NCBI GenBank assembly: GCA_942492815.1
Contig: OW818658.1
Span: 3,862,059-3,926,058, forward strand
Source of the DNA: Candidatus Hydrogenedentales bacterium
Lineage (GTDB): Bacteria > Hydrogenedentota > Hydrogenedentia > Hydrogenedentales > JAEUWI01
Direction: 5' to 3'
Length of the DNA stretch: 64,000 nucleotides
Of the stretch, positions 12,944 to 52,410 are shown piece by piece. Position numbers and translations under genes: made by a program. How positions within the stretch are numbered: the first letter of the stretch is position 1; every line of letters starts with the position of its first letter. The notes under the pieces are model-generated. The model did no database searches. It was not told the DNA's origin and saw only the letters and a list, made by a program, of their open reading frames with translations.

Positions 12944-12974
12944 TGGTGCGCGACGCAATGAGGAAGGTTTTGAC

Positions 12975-26459: not shown

Positions 26460-27011
26460 TCAGCCCGGCTGAACCTCTTCCCAGGCGGACTGATCCAGGG
26501 AGGGAAAGGTGATCTGGCAATTCCCCGCCATGAGTCCCGTGAGGCGGGCTTTTCCCTTGGAATCGGTGGTGCCTTTGTCGACGGTCTTCCCGTCGGGCAG
26601 CACGATCTCATAGGGCATGCCCGCGATGGGGCTGTCATCCATACCGACCAGTTCGATCTCGATCCAATCGGTCTTTTTCTGCACCGCCTTCTCCTGCACG
26701 ATGGCGGCCTGCTCCAGTTGGGCCTCTTCTTCGGCGGCCTCCTCGGAGATCTCCTGATCCGCCTGCTGGCGGGCCTGCTCCTGGCGCTGCTCCTGCTGGG
26801 CCGCCTGACCGGCGGCGGCCTCCTGCTCTTCGGCAGTGGGCGGCTTGTAGGGCGTGACCTTCTGGGTACCGTACTTCCCGGTCTGGCTCTGGATCTGCTC
26901 CGCCTTGATCTCCTGGATTTTTCCCGGATCAGCCTCGTCCGCGGGTTCGGGGGCCACGGCGTCGGCCGGGGCCACCGCGCTGCCGGCGGTACCGTCTTTA
27001 GGTGTGGGCAT
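26460..27011 (-). CDS. hypothetical protein: acidic/Gln-rich low-complexity N-terminus and small C-terminal beta domain, encoded immediately downstream of vgrG
   Basis: MPTPKDGTAGS...EQEAAAGQAAQQEQRQEQARQQADQE... then WIEIELVGMDDSPIAGMPYEIVLPDGKTVDKGTTDSKGKARLTGLMAGNCQITFP. No match to known VgrG adaptor families (DUF4123/DUF1795/DUF2169) that I can recognise. Confidence 0.45.
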   Translation of the reverse strand: MPTPKDGTAGSAVAPADAVAPEPADEADPGKIQEIKAEQIQSQTGKYGTQKVTPYKPPTAEEQEAAAGQAAQQEQRQEQARQQADQEISEEAAEEEAQLEQAAIVQEKAVQKKTDWIEIELVGMDDSPIAGMPYEIVLPDGKTVDKGTTDSKGKARLTGLMAGNCQITFPSLDQSAWEEVQPG

Positions 27012-36058: not shown

Positions 36059-37174
36059 TTAATTGTCATCCTCCGATGAGCCTCCCCCGGCGTTCATGGA
36101 ACCCGAGAGCGACGTGCCGGTGATGGTCTGGATATCCGAAAGCGCGCCGGGCGACAAGTCGGAAATAATGTCGAAAAAATTCGCCGTAACCAGGCGCTCG
36201 GCCCGCTTCATGATGAGCGGTACGGGGCTGGACGGTTCATTCTTGTTGTAGTACTTGTAGATGAGGTCGAAAGCCTTGAGTACGTCCTGCCGGGTATTGA
36301 TGCCGGCCGAACCCATGTCGCCGCGTTTTGCGGCCGCTTCACCACCACCACCACCGCCCGCCTCCTCGCCATCACCGGTGTCATCTGATTCTTCGGTGGC
36401 GCTTGCATCGGAAAAATAGCCGCGCCGGTCAAGCTCATTGTGGACCGGCTTCTTCATATCCTGCAACATACCGGCCAGGTTCGCAAAGGTGGGCGGCGTG
36501 CTCTCCGTCAACTTCTCTCGAAGTGCGCCCTTGATGCCATCCAGCGTGGCCAGCGACTCGGTCAGCGCGCCGTACATGGCCTCCAAATCGGCCAGGGGCG
36601 TGTCTTCAAAGGCCCCGAGAATCAGGGCCATCTTGGGCGCATCGCTCGATTCGTCACTACCTGCGGCCAGCGCGGCCTGAATATCGCGAAGGGAAAAGCG
36701 GCCTAACTGGCGAGAACTGGTCAGGGGCGTTTCCCGGAGGCGTTGCAGGAACTTCATCGTGTCGCCGGCCGTGCTGAGGGGGGCGCTCATGTCGTTCAGG
36801 ATATTCTCCCGCTCCATCCAGCCGTCCGGGTCGCCCATGCTCTCGTCGGGGTCCAGCGATGGGTACATGCTGTCCCAGTATCGCTCAATCATGCCCCGGG
36901 TCAACAGCAGGCCATCACGAAACCCGGTCACACCCTGCCGCTTCATGGCGGCAAGGCTCAGAAACAGGGCGGTTCGAAGGTGCTTGCAGGATTTGAAGTG
37001 CTCCAGCGCTTTTTCATTCAGATCGAGCCAATTGGGCTCCACGGCGTCGATTTCGGCACCGGCGATGACCCCCACCCCTTGTTCCTTGACGATCTCCTCC
37101 AGCGCAAAGAGGGAACCTTCCTCTCCACATGGATTATCACCGGGAATGGGCTCTAATAACTGGTCTAAATCCAT
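36059..37174 (-). CDS. tssA: type VI secretion system protein TssA (ImpA N-terminal domain family, short form)
   Basis: ImpA_N-like start MDLDQLLEPIPGDNPCGEEGSLFALEEIVKEQ. About 371 aa with an acidic/Gly-rich linker (DDTGDGEEAGGGGGGEAAAKRGD). First gene of the minus-strand operon. The listed ORF extends 79 codons further upstream without support, and the start could alternatively be the ATG 11 codons upstream (MCVLL...). Confidence 0.75.
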   Translation of the reverse strand: MDLDQLLEPIPGDNPCGEEGSLFALEEIVKEQGVGVIAGAEIDAVEPNWLDLNEKALEHFKSCKHLRTALFLSLAAMKRQGVTGFRDGLLLTRGMIERYWDSMYPSLDPDESMGDPDGWMERENILNDMSAPLSTAGDTMKFLQRLRETPLTSSRQLGRFSLRDIQAALAAGSDESSDAPKMALILGAFEDTPLADLEAMYGALTESLATLDGIKGALREKLTESTPPTFANLAGMLQDMKKPVHNELDRRGYFSDASATEESDDTGDGEEAGGGGGGEAAAKRGDMGSAGINTRQDVLKAFDLIYKYYNKNEPSSPVPLIMKRAERLVTANFFDIISDLSPGALSDIQTITGTSLSGSMNAGGGSSEDDN

Positions 37175-37612
37175 CAGCGCTCCTGCAGGGCTCAACAAGA
37201 CACACATGCGGCGCACAAATGGGGGATCCCTCGCTGCATGTAGTCGGTAAACAGTTGACCACGTGATTAAACCTGAAAAGTACAGGCAAGTCAAGATCGA
37301 TTTTGACCGGCCGGTGCGCCTGCCAGAATCCCCAACGCACCACGTGTCACAAGGGTAGACAAGGCCTGATCGCGTGGGTATCATAGTGATTGTGGCGGCG
37401 AAATGGAGCATGATCGGCGCGCCTCCTTCCTGTATAGTGGTCGGCAGAGGATCGTGCGGTCGCGAGATGCCTGGACCTTTGGCGCAACAGAGGTCTAAGG
37501 CTGCTCTATGCTCCTTTCCAAGGCGGGATGGTCAGGCTGTGGCCATCGCGGAGTTGGCGTCCACACACCCGGGTTACCCTACCCTGTTCGCAACGTGTAG
37601 CTGGAGTTTCAA
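37175..37612. promoter_or_regulatory. divergent intergenic region between tssA (minus) and the giant EF-hand/cadherin gene (plus); expected to hold promoters for both
   Basis: 438 bp, non-coding in all frames with convincing support. GGAG Shine-Dalgarno 11 nt upstream of the ATG at 37613. No promoter elements could be assigned confidently by eye. Confidence 0.4.
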
Positions 37613-40600
37613 ATGATTCTATTGCCCGGTGGGCGGCGGCTGTTCGATCCGCGCCTGGTTTCCAGTTTGCTCCTGGGGTTTGGCTCCTGCCTGGGGGCCT
37701 TGCCCGCATGGGCCGCATCCCCCTCGCCCGGCGGCGATATCACGGCCACGGCTCCCGGTGGAGGCGCGACGTCGATCACCGAAGACGACACCGCGCCCGG
37801 CGCCGCGAACGTTCGCTTTACTCCCACGACACTTAGCGACGCCGACATGGGCGAAACGCCCGACTCCATCCGGCTGGTATCCATCTCCGGCGGCACGATT
37901 GCCCAGGGGGATGGCACGGCCATCACCGTAAGCACTTCCGGCACAGTATTGGCCCTGACCGCCGGCGATCTCGACGCGCGCTTCACGCCAGACCCCGACC
38001 GCGATACGGCGGCGACCATCCAGTACCGCGTGGTGGACGAGGGCGGCGGCGCGGACTCCACATCCTCCACCATAACCATTGATATTTCCCCAGCAGACGA
38101 CGACGCTCCGGATGCCGGTGGGGCCGTGACCGCGACGAACACGAGCGGTGGCGCGATCAGTATCAGCGAAGACGCGGCGGCACCCGGCGCGGCCAACATC
38201 CGGGTCACGCCTACGACCTTGAATGACCCGGATACGGTGGATGATCCGCCGACAGCCATTCGGCTTCTGGCATTCACCGGCGGTACCGTGGCCCAATCGA
38301 ACGGCTCAGCCATCACCCTGGGCGCCGGTGGCACGGCCCTTACGCTGACTTCGGGCCGGGTCGACCTGCGATTTACGCCCACGGCCAACCGCGACACGGC
38401 GGTAACTATCCCGTATGTCGTGGTGGACCCTTCGGGTGTGAACGATTCGTCGTCGTCCAACATTACCGTTAATATTACGGCAAGCGCGGACCCGCCGAGC
38501 GCTGGGGGCAACGTCACCGCCACGGCACCCGGCGGCGGCGCAACGTCGATCACGGAAGACGACTCGGCCCCCGGCGCAGCCAACATCCGCGTTACCCCCA
38601 CGCCCCTGAGCGATCCGGACAATGGCCAGACGCCCGCATCCGTCCGCTTGATCAGCGTCGCTGGCGGAACCGTAACCCAGAGCGGCGGGGCGGGTATTAC
38701 GCTGGGGGCCTCCGGCACGGTTCTCGCCTTGTCTGCGGGAAATCTGGATCTCCGCTTCACCCCGACGGCCGATCGCGATACGGCGGCCACCATCAGCTAT
38801 GTCGTGGTCGATCCAGGCGGCATCAGCGATTCCGCGCAGTCCACCATAACCGTCAATATCACCCCCGACGCTGACGCGCCCTCCGCAGGTGGCAATATAA
38901 CCGCGACCGCACCCGGCGGCGGCGCGATCAGTATTACCGAAGACGCCGCCGCACCCGGTGCGGCCAATATCCGCGTAACGCCGACGACTTTGACCGATGT
39001 TGACGCCGGAGAGACGCCCGATTCCATTCGCCTGCTGGCCTTCACGGGCGGCACGGTTGCTCAGGGCGATGGTTCTGCCATCGTGCTCGGCGCTTCGGGG
39101 ACGATTCTCGCTCTCACGAGCGGCAACCTGGATCTCCGCTTTACCCCTGCGGCGAACCGCGATACCGCCGTAACGATTCCCTACGTCGTCGTGGATCCCG
39201 GCGGCGTGACCGATTCGAGCCCGTCCAACATCACCGTAAACATTACGGCGGTGAATGACGCGCCCACGGCCTCGAATGGCACGCTGGCCTCCATCGCGGA
39301 GGACGCAACAAATCCGGCGGGCGCAACGGTAAGCGCCTTGTTCGGCGGATCCTTCAGTGACGTGGAAGGCACCTTCGCAGGTATCGCCGTCACCGCGAAT
39401 CCACAACTCGCGTCGGAAGGGGTCTGGGAGTATTCGCCCCCCGCAAGCCCCGGCAATACCTGGTTCCCCATCGGAGCGGTCACCGACACCGCTTCCGCGC
39501 CCAACGCCCTGGTCCTGGGCACCACCACGATGCTGCGTTTCGTACCCACGACCGACTTCGGCGGCACGGTGACCTCCATCAGCGTTCGGGTCCTCGACAA
39601 CACCTACGCCGGCCTTTTCTCCTCGCGCACGGGAGGCACACAGAACCGGGTCACGCTCAACACGGCGACCAACGGCACACCCACAGCCATAAGCGGCGCG
39701 ACCAACACGATTTCCCACACGGTGATCTCCGACAACGACACGCCGTCGTCCGCGCAGAACAATCTACTGACGCTGAATCAGGGTGACGCGGCGACGATCT
39801 CGAGCGCCCTGCTGTCCTACACCGACACCGACGACGTTGCGGCCAATTTGACGTACACGGTGGTCGCGGGACCAACCAATGGTGCGCTGAACCTCGGCGC
39901 CTCGTTTACCCAGGCTGCCATCAACGCCAATTCGCTGACCTACACCCACAATGGTACGGTGACGCAGTCCGACAGCTTCACCTTTAACGTCAAAGATGAC
40001 GAGAACGCCACGACGGCCAACGCGACGTTCAACATCACAGTAAACCTTACCCCGACGGTAACGACACCGATTGCGGATGTGCTGGTCAACGAAAGCGCCC
40101 CCAACTCAGTCATCAGCCTGCTCTCCAGTTTCGACGACGCAGAAGACGGCGCGGGCGGACTGACGTACTCGGTCCAAAGCACGACAGGCTCTATTTTCAA
40201 TGGAACTCCGTCCATAGCCGGGAGCAATCTCACCGTTGCCTACCCCGCGAACACGCCGGGTATCGGCACCATTACGATCCGTGCGACGGACAGTGGCGGC
40301 GATTCCATCGAGGACACCTTTCAGGTCACCGTCAATGATCGGCCCGCCGCCGCTGCGGACAGCGGCAACACCAACGAGGGCACGGCAGTTACCATCGATG
40401 TCCTGCTGAACGACGGCGACACGGATGGCACCCTGACCCCGGCCAGCGTCACCGTGACCAGCGCGCCCGCCAATGGCTCCACGTCGGTCAACACGAGCAA
40501 CGGCCGGATCACCTATACGCCTTCCGGGAACTTCAACGGCACGAATACGTTTCAATACACGGTGAACGACAACCGGGCCGCAACGTCGAACGCCGCCACG

Positions 40601-43600
40601 GTCACGGTAACCGTAAATGCGGTAAACGATGGCCCCATCCTGACCGTCCCCGGAACCACGCAGGATGTCGCCGAGGGGGCCTCTCTCGTATTCAGTACGG
40701 CGAACGGCAACCCGATTACCGTGGCCGACGTGGACGCCGACGAAACCGCCATGCCGACGGGGGGGGTGAATGTTACCCTCGCGGCGACCAAGGGCACCTT
40801 CACCCTCGCCTCGACGGCGGGGCTGGTCAATCTCACAGGCAACAGCTCGGCCAGCGTGAGCTTCGACGCCACCATCGCCAACGCCAGTCTGGCGCTGAAC
40901 GGCTTGACGTATACCCCGACGGCCCTGCTGAACGGCGCGGAAACGCTCACGGTGACCGTAAGCGACAAAGGCAATACCGGCGCGGGCGGTGTGCTCACCG
41001 ACAGCGATACCATCGACGTGAGCATCGCATCCACCAACAATCCGCCCGTAATCACGGTGCCGGGCGGGCAATCGGTCAACGAAGACGCGACCACCGGAAT
41101 TTCGGGCATCAGCATCGCCGACCCCGACGCCGGCGGCGGCTCCCTGACTGTGACGCTGGGCGTCGCCCAGGGCCGCATCGCGGTGAACACTGCCGCATCG
41201 GGCGGGGTGACCGCGGGCAACATTACCGGCAATAATTCGGCCTCGGTAACCCTCGCGGGCACCTTGACGCAATTGAACAATACCCTGCCGACCCTCACCT
41301 TCACCACGGCATCCAACCTGGTCACGACTCAGACGCTCACCATCGGCGCCAATGACAACGGCAACTCCGGCGGCGCGGCGGAAACAGACTCGGAAACGGT
41401 CACGCTAACGATCACGCCGCAGAACGACAACCCGTCCTTCAGCAATTTCCCCGGCGCGCAATCGGTAAATGAAGACACCAACCTCGTGTTCAACGCGGCC
41501 AATGGCAATCGCATCACGGCGGCCGATGTGGACGTCCAGGAGAATAACCCCGGCGGCACCCTCCGGGCATCCCTGAGTGTGGGCAGTGGCACGCTCACGC
41601 TGGGCGGCACGACCGGCCTGACCTCCGTCACGGGCAACGGCACGGCTACGGTTGTCGTGGTCGGCTCCTTGACCAACGTGAACAATGCACTGAACGGCCT
41701 CACCTATCGCGGTACCCAGCATTACAATGGACCGGACACCCTGAGCGCCACGCTTAACGACCTCGGTAATACCGGTACCGGTGGCGGCGGCGATATCGCA
41801 CAGAGTGTTTCCCTAACCGTGAACGCCATCAACGACCCGCCCGAGCTCACCGTGCCCGGCGCGCAGACGGCCGACGAGAACGTCAACTTTCCTTTCAGCG
41901 CGACAGACGGCAATGCGATCGTTATTGATGACCCGGACGCCGACGAGGCTCCCGGAGAACTGGTGGCCAGCCTTTCCGTACTCCAAGGAACGCTCACCCT
42001 CGCCAACGGTGCCGGCCTGCTTGCCAGCAGCGGCAGTGGCACGGCGACACTGAACATGACCGGCACGCTGGCGGCGCTGGAAGCGGCGCTGGACGGCCTG
42101 GTCTACCGGGGCAACCTGAACTTCAACGGCGGCGATACCCTCTCCATCTCAGTGGACGATCAGGGAAATTCAGGCAGCGGCGGCGCGGGAACGGACAGCG
42201 CGGCGGTGGAAATCACCGTGGACGCGGTCAACAATGCGCCCCAACTGGTCCTTCCCGGCGCACAGACCATTGATGAAGACGCCACGGCTTCCATCACCGG
42301 CATCTCGGTAAGTGACGTGGACGCGGCTGCGGGCACGCTGGTTGTTTCTCTGGGCGTGGGCGCGGGCCGACTCCAGGTGGACGGCACGATAGCGGGCGGC
42401 GTTCAGGCCCTGGCCATAGGCAACAACAACACCAATTCGGTTACCTTGACGGGAACGCTGGGACAATTGAACACCACCCTCCCCTCACTGCGCTTTACTT
42501 CGGCCTTGAACAACCGCACGAACCAGACCCTCACCGTTAGTGTGAACGATCAAGGCAATACGGGACAGGGCGGCAGCCAGATCGCAACGGGCACCGTGGC
42601 CCTGAACATCTCAGCGCTGAATGACGACCCAAGCCTCAGCCTGCCCGGCACCCAGACCATCAACGAAGAGACCAGCCTGACCTTCGGCATCGCCAATGGG
42701 AACGCACTGAGCGTTTCCGATCCCGATGTGGCCGAAACACCGGGCCAACTCCGCGTGACCCTGGCCGTCGCCCGGGGCCGATTGAGTCTGGCGACTACCA
42801 GCGGGATCGCGCTGGTCAACGGCACGGGCACCAATGACACCTCCGTCACCTTCACCGGTGTCGCCACGGCATTGAACACCGCGCTGAACGGATTTTCCTA
42901 TCAACCCGATGCCAACGTTAATACGGAGTCCGGCGCGGCGGAATCTTTGTCCGTCACGGTGAACGATCAGGGCTTTACCGGCAATGGCGGTGGTGGAAAC
43001 ATCACGGGTGCCGTTCCCATCACGATCCTGGCCGTCAATGATGCCCCGGAACTTGCGGTGCCAGGCGCCCGAACGGTGAATGAAGATATCGACCTTGTTT
43101 TCGCGGGCAGTATTTCCGCCAGCGACGTTGATGTGGATGAAGCCACGGATGGCACGCTGGAAATATCGCTCGCGGTAACGAAGGGTACGTTGACCCTTTC
43201 CGGCACGGCCGGTCTTACCATCGACGCCCCGGCAACGGGCACGGCGGACATGACCATCACCTTCCGGGGCTCGCTGAGCGATGTAAACGCCGCCTTGAAC
43301 GGGTTGCGCTATCGCGGAAACGCCGACGTCAATGGCAGCGACACCCTCAGCCTGTCTGTCAGCGACCTCGGCAACACCGGGATCGGCGGTGACCTGGACG
43401 ACTCGGCTACGGTCGCCATCACCGTTACCCCGATCAATGACGCGCCAGTAGCGAGTAACGCTGCCCTCACACCGGTCGAGCCCCTGCGCAATGAGAATCT
43501 GAACGCAGCCTATACCTATACCGACGTGGACACCGATACCGAATCGGGCACCATCATCCGCTGGTTCCGCAATGATGTACTCCAGCCTGCCTTCAACAAC

Positions 43601-46600
43601 CTAACCGAAGTTCCCGGGGCCTCCACGGTCGAGGGCGAAGTCTGGTATTTCCAGGTGACGCCCGGCGATGGCACCATCACCGGTGCGGTCGTGCAGTCCA
43701 ACAGCGTCACGATTCGCCCTGTCGCGGACCTCCAGCTCTTCATCACACGCGAACCCAATGTCGTGGTGCCCGGCGAGGGCGTGGCCTACACCTTCCAGGT
43801 GCGCAATCTGGGCCCAAGCCCGGTGGCCGCCGCCGAAGTCTCCACCGTGCTGCCCGCAGCGCTCCAGAATGCAACCTGGACCTGCGACGCATGCGGCACC
43901 AGCGGCACCGGCGCCATCAATGAGACGGTCGACCTCGCTTCCGGCGAAACGGTCGAGTATCTGCTCGCGGCCGATATCGATGCCGCCGCCACGGGCGCAC
44001 TGGTGGTGTCCGGCTCGGTGCTCGCCCCCGCGCTGGTCTTTGAAACGGACAACTCGAGCAACAGCCGCACCAACAGCGCGACCCTGGTGCCGGAGGCGAC
44101 ACTCAATGTAACCATGACCGCGGATCGCGAGACGGCGCAGCCCGGCGATACGGTGGCGTACACCGTCACAGCCACAAACGGCGGCCCGTCGGACGCGCGC
44201 GGCGTCTTCTTCAGCGATGCGCCTGATCCCAACTCTTCACTCATTGCCGGAAGCGTCACCACGACGCTGGGCTCCGTGGTGAGCAGCGGAATCGGCGGCG
44301 TCGTCGTCAATGTGGGCGCCTTGCCCCTGGGCGACTCTGTGACCATCCGGTACGCCGTTTCCGTGAATGCCCCCTTCCCAGCGGAAGGCCGCGAGCAGAT
44401 CTGCACCCGCGGACTCTTCTCCGGCGAGCCCAACAACCCCGATGTGAATTTCCCCGATACGACACCTGACCAGGAGGTCTGCACCGCCGTAACCGCGGTG
44501 ATTGAACTGGGTGCAAGCAACACCGACACGCTGACCTTCGATGCGAACGCCGACGGCGTGGTCAATCCGGGCGACACGATTCGCTACACCGTTGACATTT
44601 CAAACCTCGGAAACGGCGGCGCGAACAATGTCACCTATACGCAGCCAGCCATCACCAATGGAAGCCTTATCGAGGACTCCGTCACGGCTTCGACGCCGGG
44701 GTCCGTCGTGGTTATCGACGCGGGGGCGCTCACGGTCAATCTTGGAAGCATCCAGGGTGACGGGAGCCCCGGAAGTACCGCCCGGATCACCTTTGACCTT
44801 GCTGTCGCGAACCCGCTTCCGCCGGGAACTGCGTTTCTTGTGAATCAGGGTTCCCTGGACTTTGAAGAGCGCCCGTCCGAGACCGCTCCCGTGCTTACGG
44901 ATGATCCAGGCGCCGTGGTGATCGAAGGATCGGACATCATCCAGGTGGATGGCGACGGCAACATCGTGCGCCCGGCACCGACCGTTACACCTGTTTTTGC
45001 GGCGCCCGCCCTTGTGGTGCGTCAGGGTGACGACATCACGCGCGCCGAAGAAAAGCAGCCCGGCGATGTGATCCAGTATTCGGTATCCATCGAGAATCGC
45101 GGTGATCTCGGGGCCCTCAATTTGTCCTACCGGGTACCCTTCCGCGACAGCGAGATTTCCGAACTGGAACTCGAGCAGGTCGACGGCGGCAATCCCCTCA
45201 GCGACGTGGCCGCCGCGCTTCTGGGCAATTTTGCCGTCCTGGACGTGGATGAAAGCGCCGGCCTCTCCAGCGCGGAGTTGAACGGCTCGCTCTTCGCACT
45301 GACCGAGCAACAGTTCAACGAACTCGACACGGGTGACGCGCGGGTCACTCTCGATGAAGACTCCATTCTGGTCAATGGAACGGCCCGTACAAACGAAGGC
45401 GGAGTATCGGAGCTGCTCCTCAATCTTGGTTCGCTGAATGGGCGCAATCCGGTGTTCACCAACGGCCCCACCATCACCATCACATTCGCCGTCGATATCA
45501 ACCCTGTTTTGCGCGCCGGCACAAACGTCATTCGCTATCAGGGCGTCGCGGACGGAGAAAACCACGCACCGGTTGTCTCTGATGACCCGGAAACCATCAA
45601 CACCGCGGCTGACGCGACTCAGACCAGCGTCCGGGCCGTTCCGTCACTCGCCGTCGTACCCGAGATTCTCACCATCGACTTCGGCGACCAGGACATTGAC
45701 GACGGCCCGACGGCCACCCGTACCGTGGAAATCACCAACACCGCAACGGCAACCGCCAACCTGAGCCTGGGCTTTGTGGGCCTTGAGGGTGCCTCCCTGA
45801 GTGACTTCACCATTGTCAGCGACACGGACGAAGACACGCTCGCTCCCGGACAGACCCGGTTGATCGCGCTCGCGTTTGACCCGCGTTCGATCGGCGGCAA
45901 ACGGGCGAGCCTGCGTGTGGAATCAGACGACCCCGATGATGCCGCCGTCGACGTGAACCTCTCCGGGCGCGCACTGGACAGCGACATCCGCGTGACCCCG
46001 AGCACGCTCGATTTCGGGAAACGCAACCTACTCGCGGGGCCCAGTAGTCCACAGTCCGTCAGCATTATCAACGACGGCCTCGGCGACCTGACGCTGGACA
46101 GCGTGAGCCTTGCCTGCGGACCCGACATCTTCCCCGTCATGACCCAGGCTCGCTTCGATGAGCTGGATATCAATGGCGACGGCGCGTTGAGCCGGGGCGT
46201 GGGACTCCGCCGCGAACTGGAAGACGCCATCGACCTCTTCGATCTCGCGGAAGAGATCATCAGCCGCTTCAGCGCGCTCGACGTCGATACATCCCTGGAC
46301 ATTAGTCCCGAAGAGATGGACCTCCAGTTCCCCTTCCTGACCGACCCGCGCTTTGAAGCCCTGGACGGCGACTCCTCAGGCGAGCTTGAATCCGCCGAGC
46401 TGGCCGCCGCCGTACGGCTGGCCGGTTTCGCCGAGAGCCTCCTGAACAGCTTTGACGACTTCGACACCAGCCTCCCCGCAGGCCTTGACTTCACTGAAGC
46501 GCAGAGCATACTTCCCGACCTCACTGAGCTGGAGTTCCTGGATCTCGATGGCGATGGCGATGGTGTTCTCAGCCGGACCGAGCTCGAAGAGCGCTTGAAG

Positions 46601-49600
46601 CTCGCCCTCCTCGCTACGCAACTCCAGGTGGACTTCACGGGACTGGACGCCAATCGCGACGAGGCCCTGACTATCGACGAGATCAGCGCCTTCGTGCCGC
46701 TTCTAACCCCCGGCCGCTTCGCCGCCATTGATGAAGACGGTGATGAAGAACTTACGGAGCAGGAACTCGGCGCGGTGGAATCTGTGCTCGCTGTTTCCCT
46801 CCTCACCCAGTTCACGACGCTGGACACGGATGGAAGCGATGGGCTGACCTCGGAGGAAATTAACGCGACCTGCGCCTTCGAGATCCTTTCCGACTCCGGC
46901 GAAGACACGCTGGAAACGGCACAGTCCCGCCTGGTCCGTATTGTATTCGACCCTTCGACCGAGGGCGCGAAAGTCGGCACCCTGCGCGTCGAGGCCAACC
47001 AGCAGGGACAGGGCACACCCATCGTATCCAAAGTCAGTCTCTTTGGCATCGGCAATCGTACCCCGCGGATCGTGGGGCAGAATCCCGTCGCCACAACCGA
47101 AGACACGCCCGTGACGATTATCCTGGATAACCTGGTGGTCGATGCGCCCCTCCTGGACTTCCCGGACGAGATTACGCTGGCATTCCAGCCCCTCCCGGCC
47201 GATGCCAACTACACCCGCGAAGGCACATCAATTATCCCAAACAAGGACTTCAACGGCGTCCTCTTCGTGCCCGTAACGGTGCGCGACGGAAACATCGACA
47301 GCAACGTGTGGAATCTCCGCGTGGACGTTTCCAAAGTAAACGACCCTCCGACCGGCGTGTCCCTGGATGCCAACACGATCCTGGAGAATCAGGTGCTGGA
47401 CACCGTGATTGGTCGCTTCTCCACGGCGGACCCCGATCTGGGTGACCTGCACCTCTACAGCCTCGTTCCCGACGATCCGTCCACGGACGACGATGACTTC
47501 GTGGACAACGAGTTCTTCGGCATCGTGGCCAATCAGCTCGTGAGCCGCGTCGTGTTCGACTTCGAAACTCGGAGCGGGTACACCATCCTCATCCAGAGCC
47601 GGGATCCTCAGGGCCAGACCTTTGAGCGGGCCTTCGGAGTCACGATCGTGGATCAGCCCGACGACGAGGACAATGCGGTGGCTGCCGAGGTTCTCCTCGA
47701 CAACTTTGACAGCATCGACGCGAATCAGGATGGCATACTCGAGTTCGACGAAGCCCTGATTCTTCTCCCCGGCTTCACCCGCGAGCGCTTCGATTCGCTG
47801 AACTTGGAAGTCGAGGTCTCCCTCACTGAAATTCAGGGGGGCATCGGATACACCGCCTCGGCGCAGACCCTCTTCGACAATTTCGACCTGGCCGATGGCG
47901 ATGGCGATGGTCTGCTCACGCTGGCCGAAGCCCGGACCCGCGTGCCCGGCCTTACCGAGGAGGCGTTCGACTACATGGACCTCGATTCGGCCATGCCCCT
48001 GACGCCGTCGGAGCTCCAGACGGCAATTCTGATCTTCGGCGATCTGGATTTCATCCGCGAGAACTTCGAGACGCTCGACGCGGATGGCAGCGGGAGTCTT
48101 ACGCTGGACGAACTGCCCGATTCGCTCTCGGCACTGACGAGGGCAACCTTCGAAGCACTGGACCTGAACCCCGGCCTCTCGCCCCGGGAACTGGAGTCCC
48201 AGGTCGTATGCGTTATCCGCGAAGACGGTGTTCGCTTGATCCAGCCCACCGGCGACCTCCTGGCCCCGCCCGGCGTTCAGGCGCTCGATGTGACCTTCAA
48301 CGCCGAAGCGGACGTTAACATTCAGGGTGCCTGCAGTGCCGACGATATCGAGTTCAGCTTTGACATCGGTGCGGAGAGTATCCTGATCACGGATCTCGCC
48401 GAGTACTTCCTGCAGAACTTCGACGCCCTGGATGCCGACTTCAACGGTGTCCTGGCGGAGTCGGAAGTAGCTTCCAGCCGCATTGGCCTCACCAGCGGCC
48501 GCTTCGTTACGCTCGATTTCGATGGCAACAGCCAGCTCTCCGTTGAGGAGCTGGAGGCGGCAGTCATCCTCTCGGATATCGCCTCTGCCCTTCTGGTCGA
48601 CTTTGCGGCGCTCAATACCGATAACAGCACGGGACTTTCCATTGCCGAGACTCAGGCCACGGCGCTCGACATCGATCAGCTCCGCTACAACTTGCTCGAC
48701 CTCAATCGCAACAGCGTGCTTACCCGCGAGGAGCTTTCGGCGGAAGAGGACCTCCCCGGCTTGCTGCTGGAAAACTTCCAGTCCCTGGATACAGATAGCA
48801 GCGAAACCCTTGACTTGGCCGAAGTTCGCGATCTCCTTCCGGGCCTCTCCGAGGTTCGTTTCGACAACCTCGACGGTGATCGCAACGGTGGACTCGCGCC
48901 GGAAGAGCTACAGGTTGCCGATGATTTCGGTCGGGGCTCAGCGCCTGCCAACCGGAACGGGCAAACCGCGGAATTCAACAAGCAGATTCGCGGCGACACG
49001 CCGGCGGTCTTCACGCTTCCGGTGGACACGGCCTACCGCGTCCGCGTGACGGCCACCCTCACAAGCACCGGCCAGACGGTCCAGTCCGACGACGTTACCT
49101 TCGAGATCCGCAACGGCTCGGACGGGGACGACAACGGTTACCTCGACTTCCCCTTCGAAGAGCTCTTCAACGACGGATCGCGCTGGGAGCGCACGGTCAC
49201 CAGCGTGGGCTGCGAGCGCACCGTGCTGCTCCACGCGTGGCACGGGGCCAACATCCCTGGCCGCGATATTGAGGCCGCATTGGTAAACCCGGCCAATCCG
49301 CAGCAAAGCATCCAACTAACCGTGCCACACGGTCTGGCGGCGGACGGCGAGGAAGCTATTCTCATTGCCGCCATCGCGTGCAGTCCTGAGGCACTCTTTA
49401 CGCGCCAGCAGGCCGACGAAATCGAGGCGTTACCGGAGGACGAGGTAAGCGGCACGCCGTGGATCGCCCTGGAGGTGATCGTCCGTGAAATCGGCGCTGC
49501 CGAGTTTGCCCCGGTGAGCGTGGCCCGGCTGGATGCGCGGCCCGTGACCATTTCCCTCAACCAGCTCGACTTCTCTCCGGAAGATCAGGCGACCTTCTTC

Positions 49601-50212
49601 GTCAACGGGGTGTCGGTTCTCTCGGACGAGATCACCGGCCTCTCGGTCGTACCGGGCGGCGGTTCCTGGACCTCCTCCAACACGGACGAAGCGGTATCGG
49701 ACTTCGGCACCCTCACAGCCACCGTCTCACGGCTGGGCACGCTGGTGGCGCTGGAGTCGCTGAAGCCCCCTATCTTCTCCAGCACCCCCGACATCGACGA
49801 AACCATCAGCCTGGGCGAGGTCCGGGTCAATGAATCTGTGGAGAAGCTCATCACCATTACCAACGACGGTGGCGAGCGCCTGATAGGCACGGCGGAGCTT
49901 CGCGATGCCACGGGCGTGTTCGCTCTGGTCGGCGAAGCGAGCTACAACCTCGGCCACGGCGAGACCCACCAGTTTCTCATACGCTTTTCGCCCCGGGACG
50001 ACACGGCCTACGCCGCCGCCATTACATTTTCCGGCGACCCCGGTGGCCTCCTGACGGCGGCGCTGTCGGGTACGGGCACGCCCGCCAAGGGACTGGGTTG
50101 CGGCCCGGTGGATCGCCCCGGCGAGTGGCCTTGGGGGAATACGCTGGTCGTGGCCCTGACTTTCGCCGGATTGTTGCTCGGGCAACGGCGGTCTTCGAAG
50201 CGTGCCGGGTAA
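37613..50212 (+). CDS. giant (4199 aa) secreted surface protein: N-terminal signal (RR-x-F, Tat-like), 5 near-identical ~127-aa tandem repeats, about 9 cadherin/VCBS-like ~97-aa repeats (VNDAP/VNDGP spacing), a DUF11-like region, an array of more than 20 EF-hand/dockerin-like Ca-binding loops, and a C-terminal hydrophobic helix plus basic tail (sorting-signal-like)
   Basis: Single uninterrupted ORF. Repeats PSAGGN(V/I)TATAPGGGA(T/I)SITEDD(S/A)APGAANIRVTPT... (37.7-39.2 kb). ...TVNAVNDGP/...TPQNDNP/...VNAINDPP periodicity (39.2-43.5 kb). DUF11-like ATLNVTMTADRETAQPGDTVAYTVTATNGGPSDA. EF loops such as DINGDGALS, DLDGDGDGVLSRTELEE, DANQDGILEFDE, DADGSGSLTLDE. C-terminus GEWPWGNTLVVALTFAGLLLGQRRSSKRAG. 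Confidence 0.85.
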   Translation: MILLPGGRRLFDPRLVSSLLLGFGSCLGALPAWAASPSPGGDITATAPGGGATSITEDDTAPGAANVRFTPTTLSDADMGETPDSIRLVSISGGTIAQGDGTAITVSTSGTVLALTAGDLDARFTPDPDRDTAATIQYRVVDEGGGADSTSSTITIDISPADDDAPDAGGAVTATNTSGGAISISEDAAAPGAANIRVTPTTLNDPDTVDDPPTAIRLLAFTGGTVAQSNGSAITLGAGGTALTLTSGRVDLRFTPTANRDTAVTIPYVVVDPSGVNDSSSSNITVNITASADPPSAGGNVTATAPGGGATSITEDDSAPGAANIRVTPTPLSDPDNGQTPASVRLISVAGGTVTQSGGAGITLGASGTVLALSAGNLDLRFTPTADRDTAATISYVVVDPGGISDSAQSTITVNITPDADAPSAGGNITATAPGGGAISITEDAAAPGAANIRVTPTTLTDVDAGETPDSIRLLAFTGGTVAQGDGSAIVLGASGTILALTSGNLDLRFTPAANRDTAVTIPYVVVDPGGVTDSSPSNITVNITAVNDAPTASNGTLASIAEDATNPAGATVSALFGGSFSDVEGTFAGIAVTANPQLASEGVWEYSPPASPGNTWFPIGAVTDTASAPNALVLGTTTMLRFVPTTDFGGTVTSISVRVLDNTYAGLFSSRTGGTQNRVTLNTATNGTPTAISGATNTISHTVISDNDTPSSAQNNLLTLNQGDAATISSALLSYTDTDDVAANLTYTVVAGPTNGALNLGASFTQAAINANSLTYTHNGTVTQSDSFTFNVKDDENATTANATFNITVNLTPTVTTPIADVLVNESAPNSVISLLSSFDDAEDGAGGLTYSVQSTTGSIFNGTPSIAGSNLTVAYPANTPGIGTITIRATDSGGDSIEDTFQVTVNDRPAAAADSGNTNEGTAVTIDVLLNDGDTDGTLTPASVTVTSAPANGSTSVNTSNGRITYTPSGNFNGTNTFQYTVNDNRAATSNAATVTVTVNAVNDGPILTVPGTTQDVAEGASLVFSTANGNPITVADVDADETAMPTGGVNVTLAATKGTFTLASTAGLVNLTGNSSASVSFDATIANASLALNGLTYTPTALLNGAETLTVTVSDKGNTGAGGVLTDSDTIDVSIASTNNPPVITVPGGQSVNEDATTGISGISIADPDAGGGSLTVTLGVAQGRIAVNTAASGGVTAGNITGNNSASVTLAGTLTQLNNTLPTLTFTTASNLVTTQTLTIGANDNGNSGGAAETDSETVTLTITPQNDNPSFSNFPGAQSVNEDTNLVFNAANGNRITAADVDVQENNPGGTLRASLSVGSGTLTLGGTTGLTSVTGNGTATVVVVGSLTNVNNALNGLTYRGTQHYNGPDTLSATLNDLGNTGTGGGGDIAQSVSLTVNAINDPPELTVPGAQTADENVNFPFSATDGNAIVIDDPDADEAPGELVASLSVLQGTLTLANGAGLLASSGSGTATLNMTGTLAALEAALDGLVYRGNLNFNGGDTLSISVDDQGNSGSGGAGTDSAAVEITVDAVNNAPQLVLPGAQTIDEDATASITGISVSDVDAAAGTLVVSLGVGAGRLQVDGTIAGGVQALAIGNNNTNSVTLTGTLGQLNTTLPSLRFTSALNNRTNQTLTVSVNDQGNTGQGGSQIATGTVALNISALNDDPSLSLPGTQTINEETSLTFGIANGNALSVSDPDVAETPGQLRVTLAVARGRLSLATTSGIALVNGTGTNDTSVTFTGVATALNTALNGFSYQPDANVNTESGAAESLSVTVNDQGFTGNGGGGNITGAVPITILAVNDAPELAVPGARTVNEDIDLVFAGSISASDVDVDEATDGTLEISLAVTKGTLTLSGTAGLTIDAPATGTADMTITFRGSLSDVNAALNGLRYRGNADVNGSDTLSLSVSDLGNTGIGGDLDDSATVAITVTPINDAPVASNAALTPVEPLRNENLNAAYTYTDVDTDTESGTIIRWFRNDVLQPAFNNLTEVPGASTVEGEVWYFQVTPGDGTITGAVVQSNSVTIRPVADLQLFITREPNVVVPGEGVAYTFQVRNLGPSPVAAAEVSTVLPAALQNATWTCDACGTSGTGAINETVDLASGETVEYLLAADIDAAATGALVVSGSVLAPALVFETDNSSNSRTNSATLVPEATLNVTMTADRETAQPGDTVAYTVTATNGGPSDARGVFFSDAPDPNSSLIAGSVTTTLGSVVSSGIGGVVVNVGALPLGDSVTIRYAVSVNAPFPAEGREQICTRGLFSGEPNNPDVNFPDTTPDQEVCTAVTAVIELGASNTDTLTFDANADGVVNPGDTIRYTVDISNLGNGGANNVTYTQPAITNGSLIEDSVTASTPGSVVVIDAGALTVNLGSIQGDGSPGSTARITFDLAVANPLPPGTAFLVNQGSLDFEERPSETAPVLTDDPGAVVIEGSDIIQVDGDGNIVRPAPTVTPVFAAPALVVRQGDDITRAEEKQPGDVIQYSVSIENRGDLGALNLSYRVPFRDSEISELELEQVDGGNPLSDVAAALLGNFAVLDVDESAGLSSAELNGSLFALTEQQFNELDTGDARVTLDEDSILVNGTARTNEGGVSELLLNLGSLNGRNPVFTNGPTITITFAVDINPVLRAGTNVIRYQGVADGENHAPVVSDDPETINTAADATQTSVRAVPSLAVVPEILTIDFGDQDIDDGPTATRTVEITNTATATANLSLGFVGLEGASLSDFTIVSDTDEDTLAPGQTRLIALAFDPRSIGGKRASLRVESDDPDDAAVDVNLSGRALDSDIRVTPSTLDFGKRNLLAGPSSPQSVSIINDGLGDLTLDSVSLACGPDIFPVMTQARFDELDINGDGALSRGVGLRRELEDAIDLFDLAEEIISRFSALDVDTSLDISPEEMDLQFPFLTDPRFEALDGDSSGELESAELAAAVRLAGFAESLLNSFDDFDTSLPAGLDFTEAQSILPDLTELEFLDLDGDGDGVLSRTELEERLKLALLATQLQVDFTGLDANRDEALTIDEISAFVPLLTPGRFAAIDEDGDEELTEQELGAVESVLAVSLLTQFTTLDTDGSDGLTSEEINATCAFEILSDSGEDTLETAQSRLVRIVFDPSTEGAKVGTLRVEANQQGQGTPIVSKVSLFGIGNRTPRIVGQNPVATTEDTPVTIILDNLVVDAPLLDFPDEITLAFQPLPADANYTREGTSIIPNKDFNGVLFVPVTVRDGNIDSNVWNLRVDVSKVNDPPTGVSLDANTILENQVLDTVIGRFSTADPDLGDLHLYSLVPDDPSTDDDDFVDNEFFGIVANQLVSRVVFDFETRSGYTILIQSRDPQGQTFERAFGVTIVDQPDDEDNAVAAEVLLDNFDSIDANQDGILEFDEALILLPGFTRERFDSLNLEVEVSLTEIQGGIGYTASAQTLFDNFDLADGDGDGLLTLAEARTRVPGLTEEAFDYMDLDSAMPLTPSELQTAILIFGDLDFIRENFETLDADGSGSLTLDELPDSLSALTRATFEALDLNPGLSPRELESQVVCVIREDGVRLIQPTGDLLAPPGVQALDVTFNAEADVNIQGACSADDIEFSFDIGAESILITDLAEYFLQNFDALDADFNGVLAESEVASSRIGLTSGRFVTLDFDGNSQLSVEELEAAVILSDIASALLVDFAALNTDNSTGLSIAETQATALDIDQLRYNLLDLNRNSVLTREELSAEEDLPGLLLENFQSLDTDSSETLDLAEVRDLLPGLSEVRFDNLDGDRNGGLAPEELQVADDFGRGSAPANRNGQTAEFNKQIRGDTPAVFTLPVDTAYRVRVTATLTSTGQTVQSDDVTFEIRNGSDGDDNGYLDFPFEELFNDGSRWERTVTSVGCERTVLLHAWHGANIPGRDIEAALVNPANPQQSIQLTVPHGLAADGEEAILIAAIACSPEALFTRQQADEIEALPEDEVSGTPWIALEVIVREIGAAEFAPVSVARLDARPVTISLNQLDFSPEDQATFFVNGVSVLSDEITGLSVVPGGGSWTSSNTDEAVSDFGTLTATVSRLGTLVALESLKPPIFSSTPDIDETISLGEVRVNESVEKLITITNDGGERLIGTAELRDATGVFALVGEASYNLGHGETHQFLIRFSPRDDTAYAAAITFSGDPGGLLTAALSGTGTPAKGLGCGPVDRPGEWPWGNTLVVALTFAGLLLGQRRSSKRAG

Positions 50213-50443: not shown

Positions 50444-51601
50444 ATGGACTTACGCGTCATCCAGAAAAAGCCCGCCCGCTTCGGAATCGGACTCATGTCG
50501 GGCAGTTCGTGCGATGGTGTCGATGCCGCGCTGGTGCGCATCAAAGGCACGGGCAAGAGCCTGGTGATGAAGCTCATTGCGCACAAGACCTTCCCCTACC
50601 CCGGCTCCTTCAAGAACCGCCTTCTGGACGAGCATCTGTCCGCACGGGATCTCTGCGTGCTCGATTTCGAGCTGGGAGAGCGCCTCGCGGAGGCGGCCCA
50701 GGAACTCATCGCCGAAGCGCCTGAAGATGAAGTATCCGTGGACTTCATCGCCTCCCACGGACACACCGTGGCCCACATCCCCCCCCGCGCCAACGAAAAG
50801 TACGGCACCCTGCAGATCGGCCAGTCCGCTATCATCGCGGAACGCACGGGGCTGCCGGTCATCTCTGATTTTCGCCCGCGCGACATGGCGGCCGGCGGCC
50901 AGGGTGCCCCGCTGGTCCCCTATGCCGACTGGCTCCTCTTCCACAAGCTCAACCGTCCCGTATCGTGCCTCAACATCGGCGGCATCGCCAATTTCACGTG
51001 CGTAACTCCTGATTTCCGCAATGTGCTCGCCTTCGACTCGGGGCCCGGCAACATGGCTATCGACGGCGCCGTGCGCATTCTCACGCGCGGCCTCCAGGAA
51101 ATGGACGAAGACGGGGAGATGGCGTCGAAGGGCATGATCATCGATGAGTTTCTGAACTACTTGCTGGATCACCCCTTCTTTGCCAAGGTACCGCCCAAGA
51201 GCACGGGCCGTGAGGAATTCGGGGTGAACGTCTACCTGCGGGATGCCCTGGCCAGCCGCTCGGAGCACACGCCAGAAGATCTCGTTGCCACGATTACCGA
51301 GGCTGTGTCGCGGAGCATTATCCAGGCCTATGACCGCTTCATCAAGCCGGAGAATCCCGCCGAGCACATCATCGTCGGCGGTGGCGGCGCCCACAACAAG
51401 ACGCTACTGAAGAAACTGAAGGATGGCTTCCGCGACTGCCAGGTCTTCACCAGCGATCAGTACGGCATCCCGACGGACGCGCGCGAAGCCATCGCCTTTG
51501 CGATCCTGGGCAACGAGTGCATCATGGGAACCCCCGCCAACGTGCCCCATGCCACCGGCGCCGAAAAGCGTGTCGTGCTCGGGAAGATTACGCCGGCGTA
51601 A
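50444..51601 (+). CDS. anmK: anhydro-N-acetylmuramic acid kinase
   Basis: N-terminal GIGLMSGSSCDGVDAALV signature of AnmK, plus the remaining conserved blocks. Shine-Dalgarno gaaggac upstream of the ATG at 50444. The listed ORF 50297 start is an unsupported upstream extension. Confidence 0.85.
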   Translation: MDLRVIQKKPARFGIGLMSGSSCDGVDAALVRIKGTGKSLVMKLIAHKTFPYPGSFKNRLLDEHLSARDLCVLDFELGERLAEAAQELIAEAPEDEVSVDFIASHGHTVAHIPPRANEKYGTLQIGQSAIIAERTGLPVISDFRPRDMAAGGQGAPLVPYADWLLFHKLNRPVSCLNIGGIANFTCVTPDFRNVLAFDSGPGNMAIDGAVRILTRGLQEMDEDGEMASKGMIIDEFLNYLLDHPFFAKVPPKSTGREEFGVNVYLRDALASRSEHTPEDLVATITEAVSRSIIQAYDRFIKPENPAEHIIVGGGGAHNKTLLKKLKDGFRDCQVFTSDQYGIPTDAREAIAFAILGNECIMGTPANVPHATGAEKRVVLGKITPA

Positions 51602-51639
51602 GGGGAAGCGCGAACACGTTGCTCAAAGGGGATCGGGCG

Positions 51640-52410
51640 ATGGGCGAGAAACCGTACAATCCGTCGTCTTCAGGACCAGGAGGTCTCCGACCAAGCGGCG
51701 GCTACCGCGAACTGCGGAGCTTTCAGGTCGTCACAATAGTCTACGATGCGACAGTTCTGTTCTGCGAGCGATTTGTTGACCGGCGCTCCCGCACCGTGGA
51801 CCAGATGGTCCAAGCGGCTCGCAGCGTGAGACAGAATATAGCGGAGGGCAGCCGGGCGTCAGCCACTTCGAGCCAGACTGAACTCCATTTGGTGAATGTT
51901 GCCCGATCCAGCCTGGATGAGTTGCTGCTTGACTACGAAGATTTCTTGAGACAACGGAGACTTGCCGCTTGGACCAAGCATAGCCCGGAGGCTATGCGGG
52001 TGCGCGCAATCGGGCGGGACTACAAACACAACCCCTCCGAAGCGGTTGACCCGAATGATCCCGCTACGCAGTTTGGCCCCTATGCGCCGTACATTTGTTC
52101 CGACGACCCTGCGGTGGCGGCGAACACACTGATATGCCTGATCCACCAGGCCAATTACCTGCTGAATCGGCAAATCGCTGGACTGGAAGCTCAATTCATC
52201 AAAGAGGGCGGCTATAGCGAACGTCTCGCGGTCGCAAGAATCGCCTATCGCGCCCAGGCGTCAGGGACTGCGCGCGGTCCGGCGTGCCCGCAATGCGATC
52301 GGCCCATGGCACTGCGCACCGCCCGGAAGGGCCCGAATGCGGGCAGGCAATTCTGGGGGTGCTCGGGCTATCCCGAATGCAAGGGGACGCGCCCACTGGA
52401 CGTGCCGTGA
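51640..52410 (+). CDS. four-helix-bundle protein (23S rRNA intervening-sequence-protein-like, TIGR02436 type) fused to a C-terminal topoisomerase-type C4 zinc finger
   Basis: VRQNIAEGSRASATSSQTELHLVNVARSSLDELL matches the NIAEG...GSxxEL core of four-helix-bundle proteins. C-terminus CPQCDRPMALRTARKGPNAGRQFWGCSGYPECKGTR is a zf-C4_Topoisom-like module. Confidence 0.65.
   Translation: MGEKPYNPSSSGPGGLRPSGGYRELRSFQVVTIVYDATVLFCERFVDRRSRTVDQMVQAARSVRQNIAEGSRASATSSQTELHLVNVARSSLDELLLDYEDFLRQRRLAAWTKHSPEAMRVRAIGRDYKHNPSEAVDPNDPATQFGPYAPYICSDDPAVAANTLICLIHQANYLLNRQIAGLEAQFIKEGGYSERLAVARIAYRAQASGTARGPACPQCDRPMALRTARKGPNAGRQFWGCSGYPECKGTRPLDVP

Follow-up and report, generated by a model that had tools for sequence, protein, structure and literature searches.

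In this study, we analysed a 64,000-nucleotide (nt) stretch of contig OW818658.1 (assembly GCA_942492815.1, positions 3,862,059 to 3,926,058 of the forward strand) from a Candidatus Hydrogenedentales bacterium, hereafter the window, and focused on a 12.6-kb gene whose transcription diverges from that of tssA, which heads a type VI secretion system (T6SS) operon. The gene encodes a protein of 4199 amino acids (aa), here called the giant protein. Our data suggest, with a probability of about 70%, that it is a Ca2+-binding cell-surface fibre of ~430 kDa, probably an adhesin, which carries a cysteine-type C-terminal sorting tail. We show that the protein is modular, comprising a Sec signal, four repeats, a stalk of cadherin-like and tandem-95 domains, DUF11 and immunoglobulin (Ig) domains, ~22 EF-hand units and a C-terminal module (Table 1). 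An initial annotation made from the sequence of the window, which described a giant surface-type protein with a calcium-loop array and a tripartite tail, encoded divergently from tssA, was right in outline.

The EF-hand array occupies aa 2852-3765 (nt 46166-48907) and consists of 20 helix-loop-helix units in three blocks, A, B and C (8, 6 and 6 units); an extra pair upstream of the array, with loops at aa 2544 and 2572, brings the total to ~22. The spacing of the loops alternates between 28 and 30-33 residues, which suggests that each ~60-aa unit is an EF-hand pair, and the consensus of the unit reads A..LL.NF..lD.D.dG.L...E and then PgLT...F..LD.d..g.L...EL. The whole protein matches EF-hand_6 (PF13405, 69.6 against a cutoff of 25), EF-hand_1 (PF00036, 60.9 against 25.4) and EF-hand_7 (PF13499, 51.1 against 30), and the segment covering blocks B and C (aa 3351-3780) scores 76.5 bits, 67.2 and 57.5, respectively. 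These scores above the Pfam gathering thresholds, over 20 units and a further pair, bear out the long array of DxDxDG-type calcium loops with helices that had been annotated initially.

A strict EF-hand pattern (hydrophobic at -4, -1 and 8, polar at 5, D at 1, D, N or S at 3, D or E at 12) is found at 14 sites in aa 2840-3779, compared with a mean of 0.076 and a maximum of 2 in 5000 shuffles, and at a single site in the preceding 2839 aa. The loops of the array comprise these 14 strict and six degenerate ones. Between the giant protein and its ortholog P0133, which is 60.6% identical overall, the ligand positions 1, 3, 5 and 12 are 81% identical, whereas the other loop positions are 39% and the non-loop positions 60% identical. 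As judged from this alignment, the excess at the ligand positions over the other loop positions is a signature of selection on Ca2+ ligation. In the secondary structure predicted by AlphaFold2 (AF2), helices flank the EF loops, at low confidence. In addition, an unrelated large protein from a JGI metagenome (P0004, 1489 aa) repeats this ~60-aa EF-hand-pair unit about five times (A..LL.NF..D.DGDG.LS..EA...VP.LT...F..LD.DGDG.LS..EL), between cadherin-like and FN3-type domains, and its C-terminal membrane region differs from that of the giant protein. The EF-pair cassette may thus be mobile among surface proteins.

Profile matches showed that EF blocks A and C, and hence at least two of the three, are apparently inserted within Ig-like domains. 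When the two Ig segments flanking block A (aa 2787-2834 and aa 3088-3152) were joined in silico, they gave single junction-spanning matches to PF22544 (positions 3-91 of 100), PF12371 (2-82 of 84) and PF15780 (12-95 of 98), and neither half gives those matches alone. Block C interrupts the first Ig-like domain of the C-terminal module: a family hidden Markov model (HMM) trained on the last 500 aa of 20 homologs matches the giant protein in two colinear pieces, namely HMM positions 23-74 at aa 3532-3585 (E=2e-5) and positions 85-494 at aa 3792-4197 (E=5.5e-107). These two pieces place an insert of ~206 aa, which is block C and its flanks, between HMM positions 74 and 85. Around block A, the same HMM matches only the C-terminal half of the Ig domain, from aa 3087, which is a cysteine.

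The giant protein contains only 12 cysteines, of which one lies in the signal peptide and ten fall into five pairs that are either close-spaced or flank an insertion (2091/2094, 2264/2290, 2835/3087, 3533/3574 and 3867/3923); Cys4163, in the tail, is the sole unpaired Cys of the mature protein. All Cys from 2091 onward are conserved in P0133, including Cys2835 and Cys3087, which bound block A. The pairs probably form disulfides, and a Cys2835-Cys3087 bond would clamp the base of block A.

The last ~400 aa of the giant protein form a C-terminal module that is also the end of at least 38 large proteins of otherwise different make-up. With aa 3771-4199 as the query, an exhaustive HMMER search retrieved 664 cluster representatives at E<=1e-3, many of which match the Ig part only; about 60 of the top 150 match over one continuous stretch of ~390 aa that lies at their very C-terminus. 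Upstream of the module, these proteins differ widely and contain DUF5011-type Ig repeats and EGEGEG linkers. Ten clusters were looked up, and all five for which a source was named belong to Candidatus Hydrogenedentota; the source contigs of the window relatives are from Hydrogenedentales metagenome-assembled genomes (MAGs). In the family alignment (A1), the module consists of an Ig-like domain, a beta-rich domain of ~220 aa, a choice-of-anchor-D Ig domain and the tail. The beta-rich domain has no match in Pfam, NCBIfam or the PDB sequences in any of 19 members, and the last Ig domain matches NF012200 in all 19. A word-indexed search with alignment A1 was dominated by choice-of-anchor-D Ig proteins. 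AF2 with A1 modelled the module with a pLDDT of 85.7 and a pTM of 0.70; residues 391-403 of the modelled segment, which hold the tail Cys and the spacer, are disordered, and residues 404-428 are helical. Foldseek searches of the PDB matched the last Ig domain to Ig domains of HYDIN, CEP192 and VesB, and this ASH Ig domain alone was recognised with confidence. The C-terminal model including aa 3836-4055 also gave a weak match to the GAIN/HormR region of BAI3 (4dlo_A; 210 columns, TM-score 0.28 for the 429-aa query).

A consensus derived from 39 family tails revealed a lipobox-like motif, [IFVL][LF]-G-C-[GAS]. The Cys is invariant (39/39), with Gly at -1 in 34 tails, L or F at -2 in 32, and G, A or S at +1 in 35. 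It lies 32-42 residues from the C-terminus and is followed by a spacer of 4-16 residues (median 9, often ending in GD), a transmembrane (TM) helix and 2-6 Arg or Lys within the last 12 residues. Thus, the Cys, the TM helix and the Arg-rich end that characterize MYXO-CTERM signals are all present in 39/39 tails. The weak model matches of these tails are limited to the Cys-type signals MYXO-CTERM (TIGR03901, 7.2-12.3 bits, cutoff 20) and JDVT-CTERM (15.5 bits, cutoff 27); there is no PEP motif, which in exosortase substrates directly adjoins the TM helix, and no family tail significantly matches PEP-CTERM (TIGR02595-type profile). The initial annotation had compared the tail to a PEP-CTERM/IPTL-CTERM-type sorting signal. 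The hydrophobic helix with its basic end holds, being conserved in relatives and predicted to be helical; the comparison does not, as the motif is G-C-[GAS]. No other window protein carries the tail, and the neighbourhood of P0172, a small family member, contains no protease.

Myxosortase requires the invariant Cys in order to cleave MYXO-CTERM (PMC11980579; bioRxiv 10.1101/2023.06.07.544157), and Cys-type signals are processed by CPBP/Rce1-like myxosortases (10.1101/2023.06.07.544157; PMC11980579). The tail of the giant protein shares with MYXO-CTERM the tripartite arrangement of Cys motif, TM helix and Arg cluster, the invariance of the Cys, and the occurrence at the very end of surface proteins that are otherwise unrelated and belong to one lineage. 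Unlike MYXO-CTERM, the family tails stay below every curated cutoff (7-15 bits against 20-27), have a Gly/Ser/Pro-rich spacer between the Cys and the TM helix and a lipobox-like motif, come from the phylum Hydrogenedentota and, among the full-module matches recovered, always follow the ~400-aa module. Judging by motif and architecture, the tail is the same kind of signal as the Cys-type CTERM signals, outside every described family. The Cys motif, together with weak matches to Cys-type signals only, predicts a CPBP/Rce1-type protease rather than an exosortase as the processing enzyme. The Ig domain before the tail and that at aa 2670-2775 both match the choice-of-anchor D family (NF012200), which is defined by adjoining varied C-terminal anchors, and the anchor of the giant protein is none of the catalogued types.

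At the other end of the protein, the AxA cleavage site is retained in the orthologs (AWA in the window, AYA and AHA elsewhere). RRLFD, which had been annotated as a Tat-like RR-x-F signal, is restricted to the window lineage, the corresponding residues being GGRVRNW in locus L012 and GGLADFRP in locus L010, and no Tat-signal model (TIGR01409, PF10518) matches the N-terminus. A Tat signal would call for conservation of the twin-arginine motif S/T-R-R-x-F-L-K. The Tat assignment was not upheld: the absence of RR from the orthologs points to Sec rather than Tat export. There is also no conserved lipobox at the N-terminus, where Cys26 is unaligned in the orthologs and the AxA signal peptidase I (SPase I) site is conserved. 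Tat export requires cytoplasmic folding, and Ca2+-dependent domains would not fold there; export of an unfolded chain by Sec fits domains that fold only with Ca2+.

The signal peptide is followed by tandem repeats, described initially as five near-identical copies of 127 aa that posed a risk of assembly collapse. We found four copies, which are pairwise 56-76% identical in protein and 62-69% in DNA; the longest word they have in common is 17 nt, and Tandem Repeats Finder reported no repeat in this region. The repeats therefore pose no collapse risk in the window. Their number differs among orthologs, with five in L012. In the TARA ocean contigs L010 (2-1063) and L011 (2-1516), the ~128-aa repeats look far more alike than those of the window, and both contigs terminate within them, so the concern about collapse or breakage holds for the TARA lineage.

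The cadherin-type repeats reported in the initial annotation were recovered as Pfam Cadherin_3, Cadherin_4, Cadherin_5 and Big_9. The tandem-95 model (NCBIfam NF012211) reaches 184 bits against a cutoff of 90 in eight stretches, and the intact Ig domain downstream (residues 2670-2775) covers positions 7-107 of the 108 in NF012200. The cadherin-like module said to interrupt the EF array is indeed present between blocks A and B, where the PDB matches are protocadherin EC domains (E=6e-5); the homologs P0002 and P0003 carry PF00028. A word-indexed search with aa 2840-4199 returned one close relative and cadherin-only matches. Neither Pfam nor NCBIfam gave an RTX or HemolysinCabind match in the giant protein, which, unlike RTX/T1SS adhesins, carries an N-terminal signal peptide.

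Upstream of the giant gene, the ATG of tssA at 37174 leaves the intergenic region of 438 bp given in the initial annotation, and both the start and the spacing agree with loci L001-L007. On the minus strand, tssA is followed by tssB, tssC, hcp, tssE, tssF, tssG, vgrG, two unknown genes, tssK, tssL and tssM (1764 aa). The TssA homologs form a clade with 65-97% identity, and the giant gene is divergent from tssA in every examined locus with TssA identity of at least 66%, i.e., the window, L004-L006, L007, L012, L014 and L010/L011. On the 3' side, anmK follows the giant gene in L007 and L016. A consensus scan for a giant-gene promoter returned one site against 0.2 expected, and both hexamers are conserved in L012 and L010. 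The blocks TGATTAAACCTGAAAA and GCAAGTCAAGATCGA are invariant in 5/5 aligned loci and probably belong to the tssA promoter. An imperfect palindrome, GTCAAGATCGATTTTGAC (37290-37307), overlaps the candidate tssA -35 element, and its right half is not conserved in L012 and L010. The two candidate promoters, both conserved, are separate and lie back to back. Rfam gave no family match for the intergenic region. Co-regulation of the giant gene with the T6SS, as hinted at in the initial annotation, may be hypothesized from this arrangement.

Table 1. Features of the giant gene and its surroundings, with the corresponding genes of related loci. Coordinates are window positions; residue numbers refer to the giant protein.
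Feature	Coordinates	Strand	Evidence or detail
Giant-protein gene, complete, 4199 aa	37613..50212	+	ORF listing, translation, colinear independent assemblies
N-terminal signal peptide, Sec-type, aa 1-34, predicted cleavage after AWA	37613..37714	+	n-region, 20-aa h-region, AxA site
Four tandem 128-129-aa repeats, aa 40-553, weakly Cadherin_5/Big_9-like	37730..39271	+	pairwise comparison
Stalk of Cadherin_3, Cadherin_4/Big_9 and eight tandem-95 repeats, ~aa 712-1900	39746..43312	+	PF16184, PF17803, PF17963, PF17892, NF012211
DUF11/CARDB-type beta-sandwich domains, ~aa 2040-2670	43730..45622	+	PF01345, PF25549, PF24346, TIGR01451
EF-hand pair in last DUF11-like domain, aa 2544-2583	45242..45361	+	loops at aa 2544, 2572
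Choice-of-anchor-D/HYDIN-type Ig domain, intact, aa 2670-2785	45620..45967	+	NF012200, PF22544
ASH/HYDIN-type Ig domain putatively split by EF block A	45971..47062	+	N-half aa 2787-2834, insertion aa 2835-3087 (8 loops), C-half aa 3088-3150
EF block A, 8 loops			loop starts aa 2852-3071
Two cadherin-like modules between EF blocks A and B, ~aa 3150-3350	47060..47662	+	weak Cadherin_5/Big_9 match
EF block B, 6 loops forming 3 pairs, aa 3355-3530	47675..48202	+	loop starts aa 3369-3517
Ig-like domain of C-terminal module putatively split by EF block C	48203..49117	+	aa 3531-3594 / 3595-3770 (6 loops) / 3792-3835
EF block C, 6 loops			loop starts aa 3607-3754
Beta-rich ~220-aa domain, uncharacterised, aa 3836-4055	49118..49777	+	conserved D-x-D-x-N-G-x-x-D-x-P-F...G-D-x-W motif, Cys pair 3867/3923
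Last choice-of-anchor-D/ASH Ig domain, aa 4056-4155	49778..50077	+	NF012200, PF22073, PF15780
Sorting-signal-like tail	50090..50209	+	G-L-G-C(4163)-G-P, ~10-aa spacer, TM helix, QRRSSKRAG
tssA, first gene of divergent T6SS operon	36059..37174	-	ImpA_N match
Candidate giant-gene promoter, sigma-70-like, TAGACA-17-TATCAT	37356..37384	+	consensus scan
Candidate tssA promoter, sigma-70-like, TTGACT-17-TTTAAT	37266..37294	-	in most conserved intergenic block
Locus L012			TssA 67%; giant gene at least 4311 aa, 65% identical over 2993 aa
Locus L014			TssA 72%; giant gene 4406 aa
Loci L010/L011 (TARA)			TssA 66%; N-terminal fragments at contig ends, C-terminal part in L016

Several observations weigh against the picture of a sorted, Ca2+-binding surface fibre linked to the T6SS. 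Ca2+ binding, surface location and lipidation of the giant protein are predictions from its sequence. The joined Ig domain around block A scores 22 bits with PF22544, just below the gathering cutoff of 25.5 bits, making the support for this insertion real but modest; moreover, AF2 modelling of aa 2785-3165 from a three-row alignment failed (pLDDT 39.6), so the nested topology of block A is a matter of profile evidence. The tail of the giant protein itself matches no curated CTERM model, even at E<=10. Described Cys-type signals have no spacer between motif and TM helix (10.1101/2023.06.07.544157), unlike the 4-16 aa found here. The scanned open reading frames (ORFs) of the window, several short intergenic gaps being unscanned, include no CPBP, exosortase or rhombosortase. 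Concerning the T6SS, the synteny is confined to one clade (TssA identity of at least 66%): in the nearest sampled outgroup, L013 (TssA 48%), transposases and an M91 peptidase lie by tssA and there is no giant gene. The clpV-like gene, found downstream in the window, has no counterpart at that position in the TARA lineage (L016). We conclude that the giant gene is no core component but a neighbour specific to this clade, bordering the T6SS cluster. Finally, the intergenic region shows no shared operator or regulatory site, and its conserved words occur nowhere else in the window.

It is very improbable that the long ORF arose in assembly, through chimerism or the collapse of repeats. Several other assemblies do have contig breaks within the gene, and in MAG GCA_041859365.1 (L007, 2697-15298) the whole gene is present as two ORFs of 2435 aa and 1765 aa that overlap by 4 nt at a single split, which could be either a frameshift by assembly error or a pseudogene. 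Nevertheless, the window ORF runs without interruption for 4199 codons, in agreement with the 12.6-kb gene of the initial annotation, and the tssA/giant-gene layout recurs in three independent assemblies, an NCBI MAG, a JGI metagenome and a Logan assembly (L004-L006). L004/L005 are colinear with aa 1-2624 (92.5% identity, 4 gap positions), and L006 reaches the first 333 aa only; a Lake Mendota MAG contig (L008) is colinear with aa 1991-4199 (93.9% identity, no gaps). The 4406-aa ortholog of L014 lies inside its contig on both sides, as judged from the coordinates, and the internal repeats share at most 17 identical nt. Exact look-ups returned no match for the whole giant protein or for a 369-aa tssA product. 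The gene has a GGAG 8 nt 5' of its ATG and a third-codon-position GC content (GC3) of 0.77, similar to that of neighbouring genes. Taken together, the giant ORF is a real gene.

The route of export and anchoring allows for other explanations. That the protein is exported by Tat and sorted by a PEP-CTERM/IPTL-CTERM-type exosortase system, as first annotated, would agree with RR-L-F in the window copy and with the tripartite shape of the tail; we find this hardly credible, because orthologs lack RR and keep AxA, neither Tat nor PEP-CTERM models match, the family motif is G-C-[GAS] instead of PEP, and the Ca2+-dependent domains would not fold in the cytoplasm as Tat requires. A rival that deserves more weight, though still improbable, is that the C-terminal helix is a permanent stop-transfer anchor that undergoes no enzymatic processing, leaving a periplasmic or envelope-spanning fibre on the inner membrane. 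The lack of a visible protease in the window, of a curated sorting-signal model reaching its cutoff, and of a precedent among intramembrane-processed signals for the motif-to-TM spacer all speak for it. On the other hand, the invariant lipobox-like Cys, its distance of 32-42 aa from the C-terminus and the Arg cluster are hallmarks of processed tripartite signals; a 4199-aa adhesin-type ectodomain in the periplasm makes little functional sense, and the domain before the tail is a choice-of-anchor D domain, which typically precedes sorting signals. The EF-hand arrays might alternatively be dockerin-like docking modules, as the initial annotation suggested, and the protein a cellulosome-like scaffold that recruits partners. 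DxDxDG-type loops each followed by a helix, and a loop spacing (28 aa) shorter than that of calmodulin, would suit this idea; but the Dockerin profile (PF00404), which describes a duplicated 22-residue segment, gave no match at E<=0.01 with the whole protein or the EF segments, while EF-hand_1, 6 and 7 exceed their thresholds, the nearest solved sequences to block B in a PDB search are the EF-hands of NOX5 and CDPK, and no cohesin-like partner was seen in the window. We dropped the dockerin resemblance and consider such a scaffold quite unlikely.

For a sorted surface fibre, we propose the following model. Sec would export the giant protein as an unfolded chain, and the C-terminal helix would retain it in the inner membrane. 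If the tail behaves like MYXO-CTERM, the free Cys4163 would then be modified, probably by lipidation, and the helix removed by a CPBP/Rce1-type intramembrane protease, after which the protein would reach the cell surface. There, extracellular Ca2+ may fold and stiffen the cadherin-like stalk and the EF-hand inserts. More speculatively, the giant protein may bring target cells into contact for T6SS attack, a role proposed because its gene and the T6SS operon are divergent neighbours in all examined loci of one clade. In Vibrio fischeri, TasL, which is encoded in the T6SS2 cluster, mediates cell-cell contact for T6SS killing in liquid (PMC9040878), and calcium promotes TasL-linked aggregation and killing (PMC9769598). 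Compared by description, both proteins are very large, are predicted to lie at the cell surface and have genes that accompany a T6SS cluster; TasL is a predicted outer-membrane lipoprotein with fibronectin-III-like repeats (PMC9040878), whereas the giant protein combines an SPase I-type Sec signal and an anchor at its C-terminus with cadherin, tandem-95 and EF-hand domains. By this analogy, the giant protein could plausibly act like TasL in T6SS contact.

Ca2+-dependent modulation has been reported for other giant adhesins. RTX adhesins such as MpIBP and LapA have tandem beta-sandwich stalks stiffened by Ca2+ (PMC7493085), and two functional EF-hands of Bap act as a Ca2+ switch for aggregation (PMC7785521). 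The giant protein resembles them in its multi-kilodalton size and tandem beta-sandwich stalk. It lacks RTX repeats and a C-terminal signal of the type I secretion system (T1SS), and its mode of secretion and anchoring is different, with an N-terminal Sec signal and a C-terminal Cys/TM tail. Compared with Bap, it has ~22 EF units instead of 2-4, in arrays nested in Ig domains.

The T6SS cluster shows further features. A ClpB/ClpV-like double-AAA protein of 860 aa (53930-56512, minus strand) falls well short of the NCBIfam cutoffs for TssH, ClpA and ClpB, and its gene is conserved beside the T6SS in L007 and L013. The TssM/IcmF homolog (18157-23451, minus strand) is unusually long (1764 aa), with only an IcmF-related N-terminal domain recognised, and no TssJ was identified in the cluster. 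Two small genes between vgrG and tssK (25643-26284 and 26460-27011, minus strand) have no family assignment, one giving a weak prealbumin-like/SpaA match; L010, L012 and L014 have genes of similar size (~180 aa, then 190-225 aa) after vgrG. On the far side of the cluster, notable genes lie at 434-823 (-), 2875-4173 (+), 6185-10189 (-), 12852-13643 (+) and 14242-16380 (+). They encode a DUF4280 (PAAR-like) protein, a transposase of the ISL3 type, a protein of 1334 aa in which 13 PKD domains are recognised, a product that looks LysM/peptidoglycan-binding-like by eye and a 712-aa amidohydrolase-like protein, and could be T6SS cargo or accessory genes. On the other side of the giant gene, between anmK and a nagX-like gene, the gene at 51517-52410 (+) encodes a protein with a four-helix bundle (23S rRNA IVS-type), a 'suffix domain' and a topoisomerase-type zinc ribbon. 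Since no such gene is called there in L007, it may be a recent insertion.

Taken together, our analysis points to a candidate for a new sorting signal, along with a module dedicated to anchoring, in a phylum that is uncultured and poorly known. Phylogenetic profiling, the route that led to the myxosortases, could directly reveal the cognate enzyme. As a tentative extension, the module and tail might constitute a Hydrogenedentota-specific anchoring cassette with a new Cys-dependent class of sorting signal and its own processing enzyme, and, separately, the Ig-looped EF arrays might be Ca2+-gated extension or rigidity elements of a contact fibre that serves the T6SS. EF-pair arrays inside Ig-like domains, with ~22 units in all, would represent an unusual Ca2+ dependence for a bacterial surface fibre. 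After TasL, the giant protein is a second independent candidate for genetic coupling between a T6SS and a giant surface protein. With related contigs from lake and ocean metagenomes, it may bear on how contact-dependent weapons are used in planktonic habitats.

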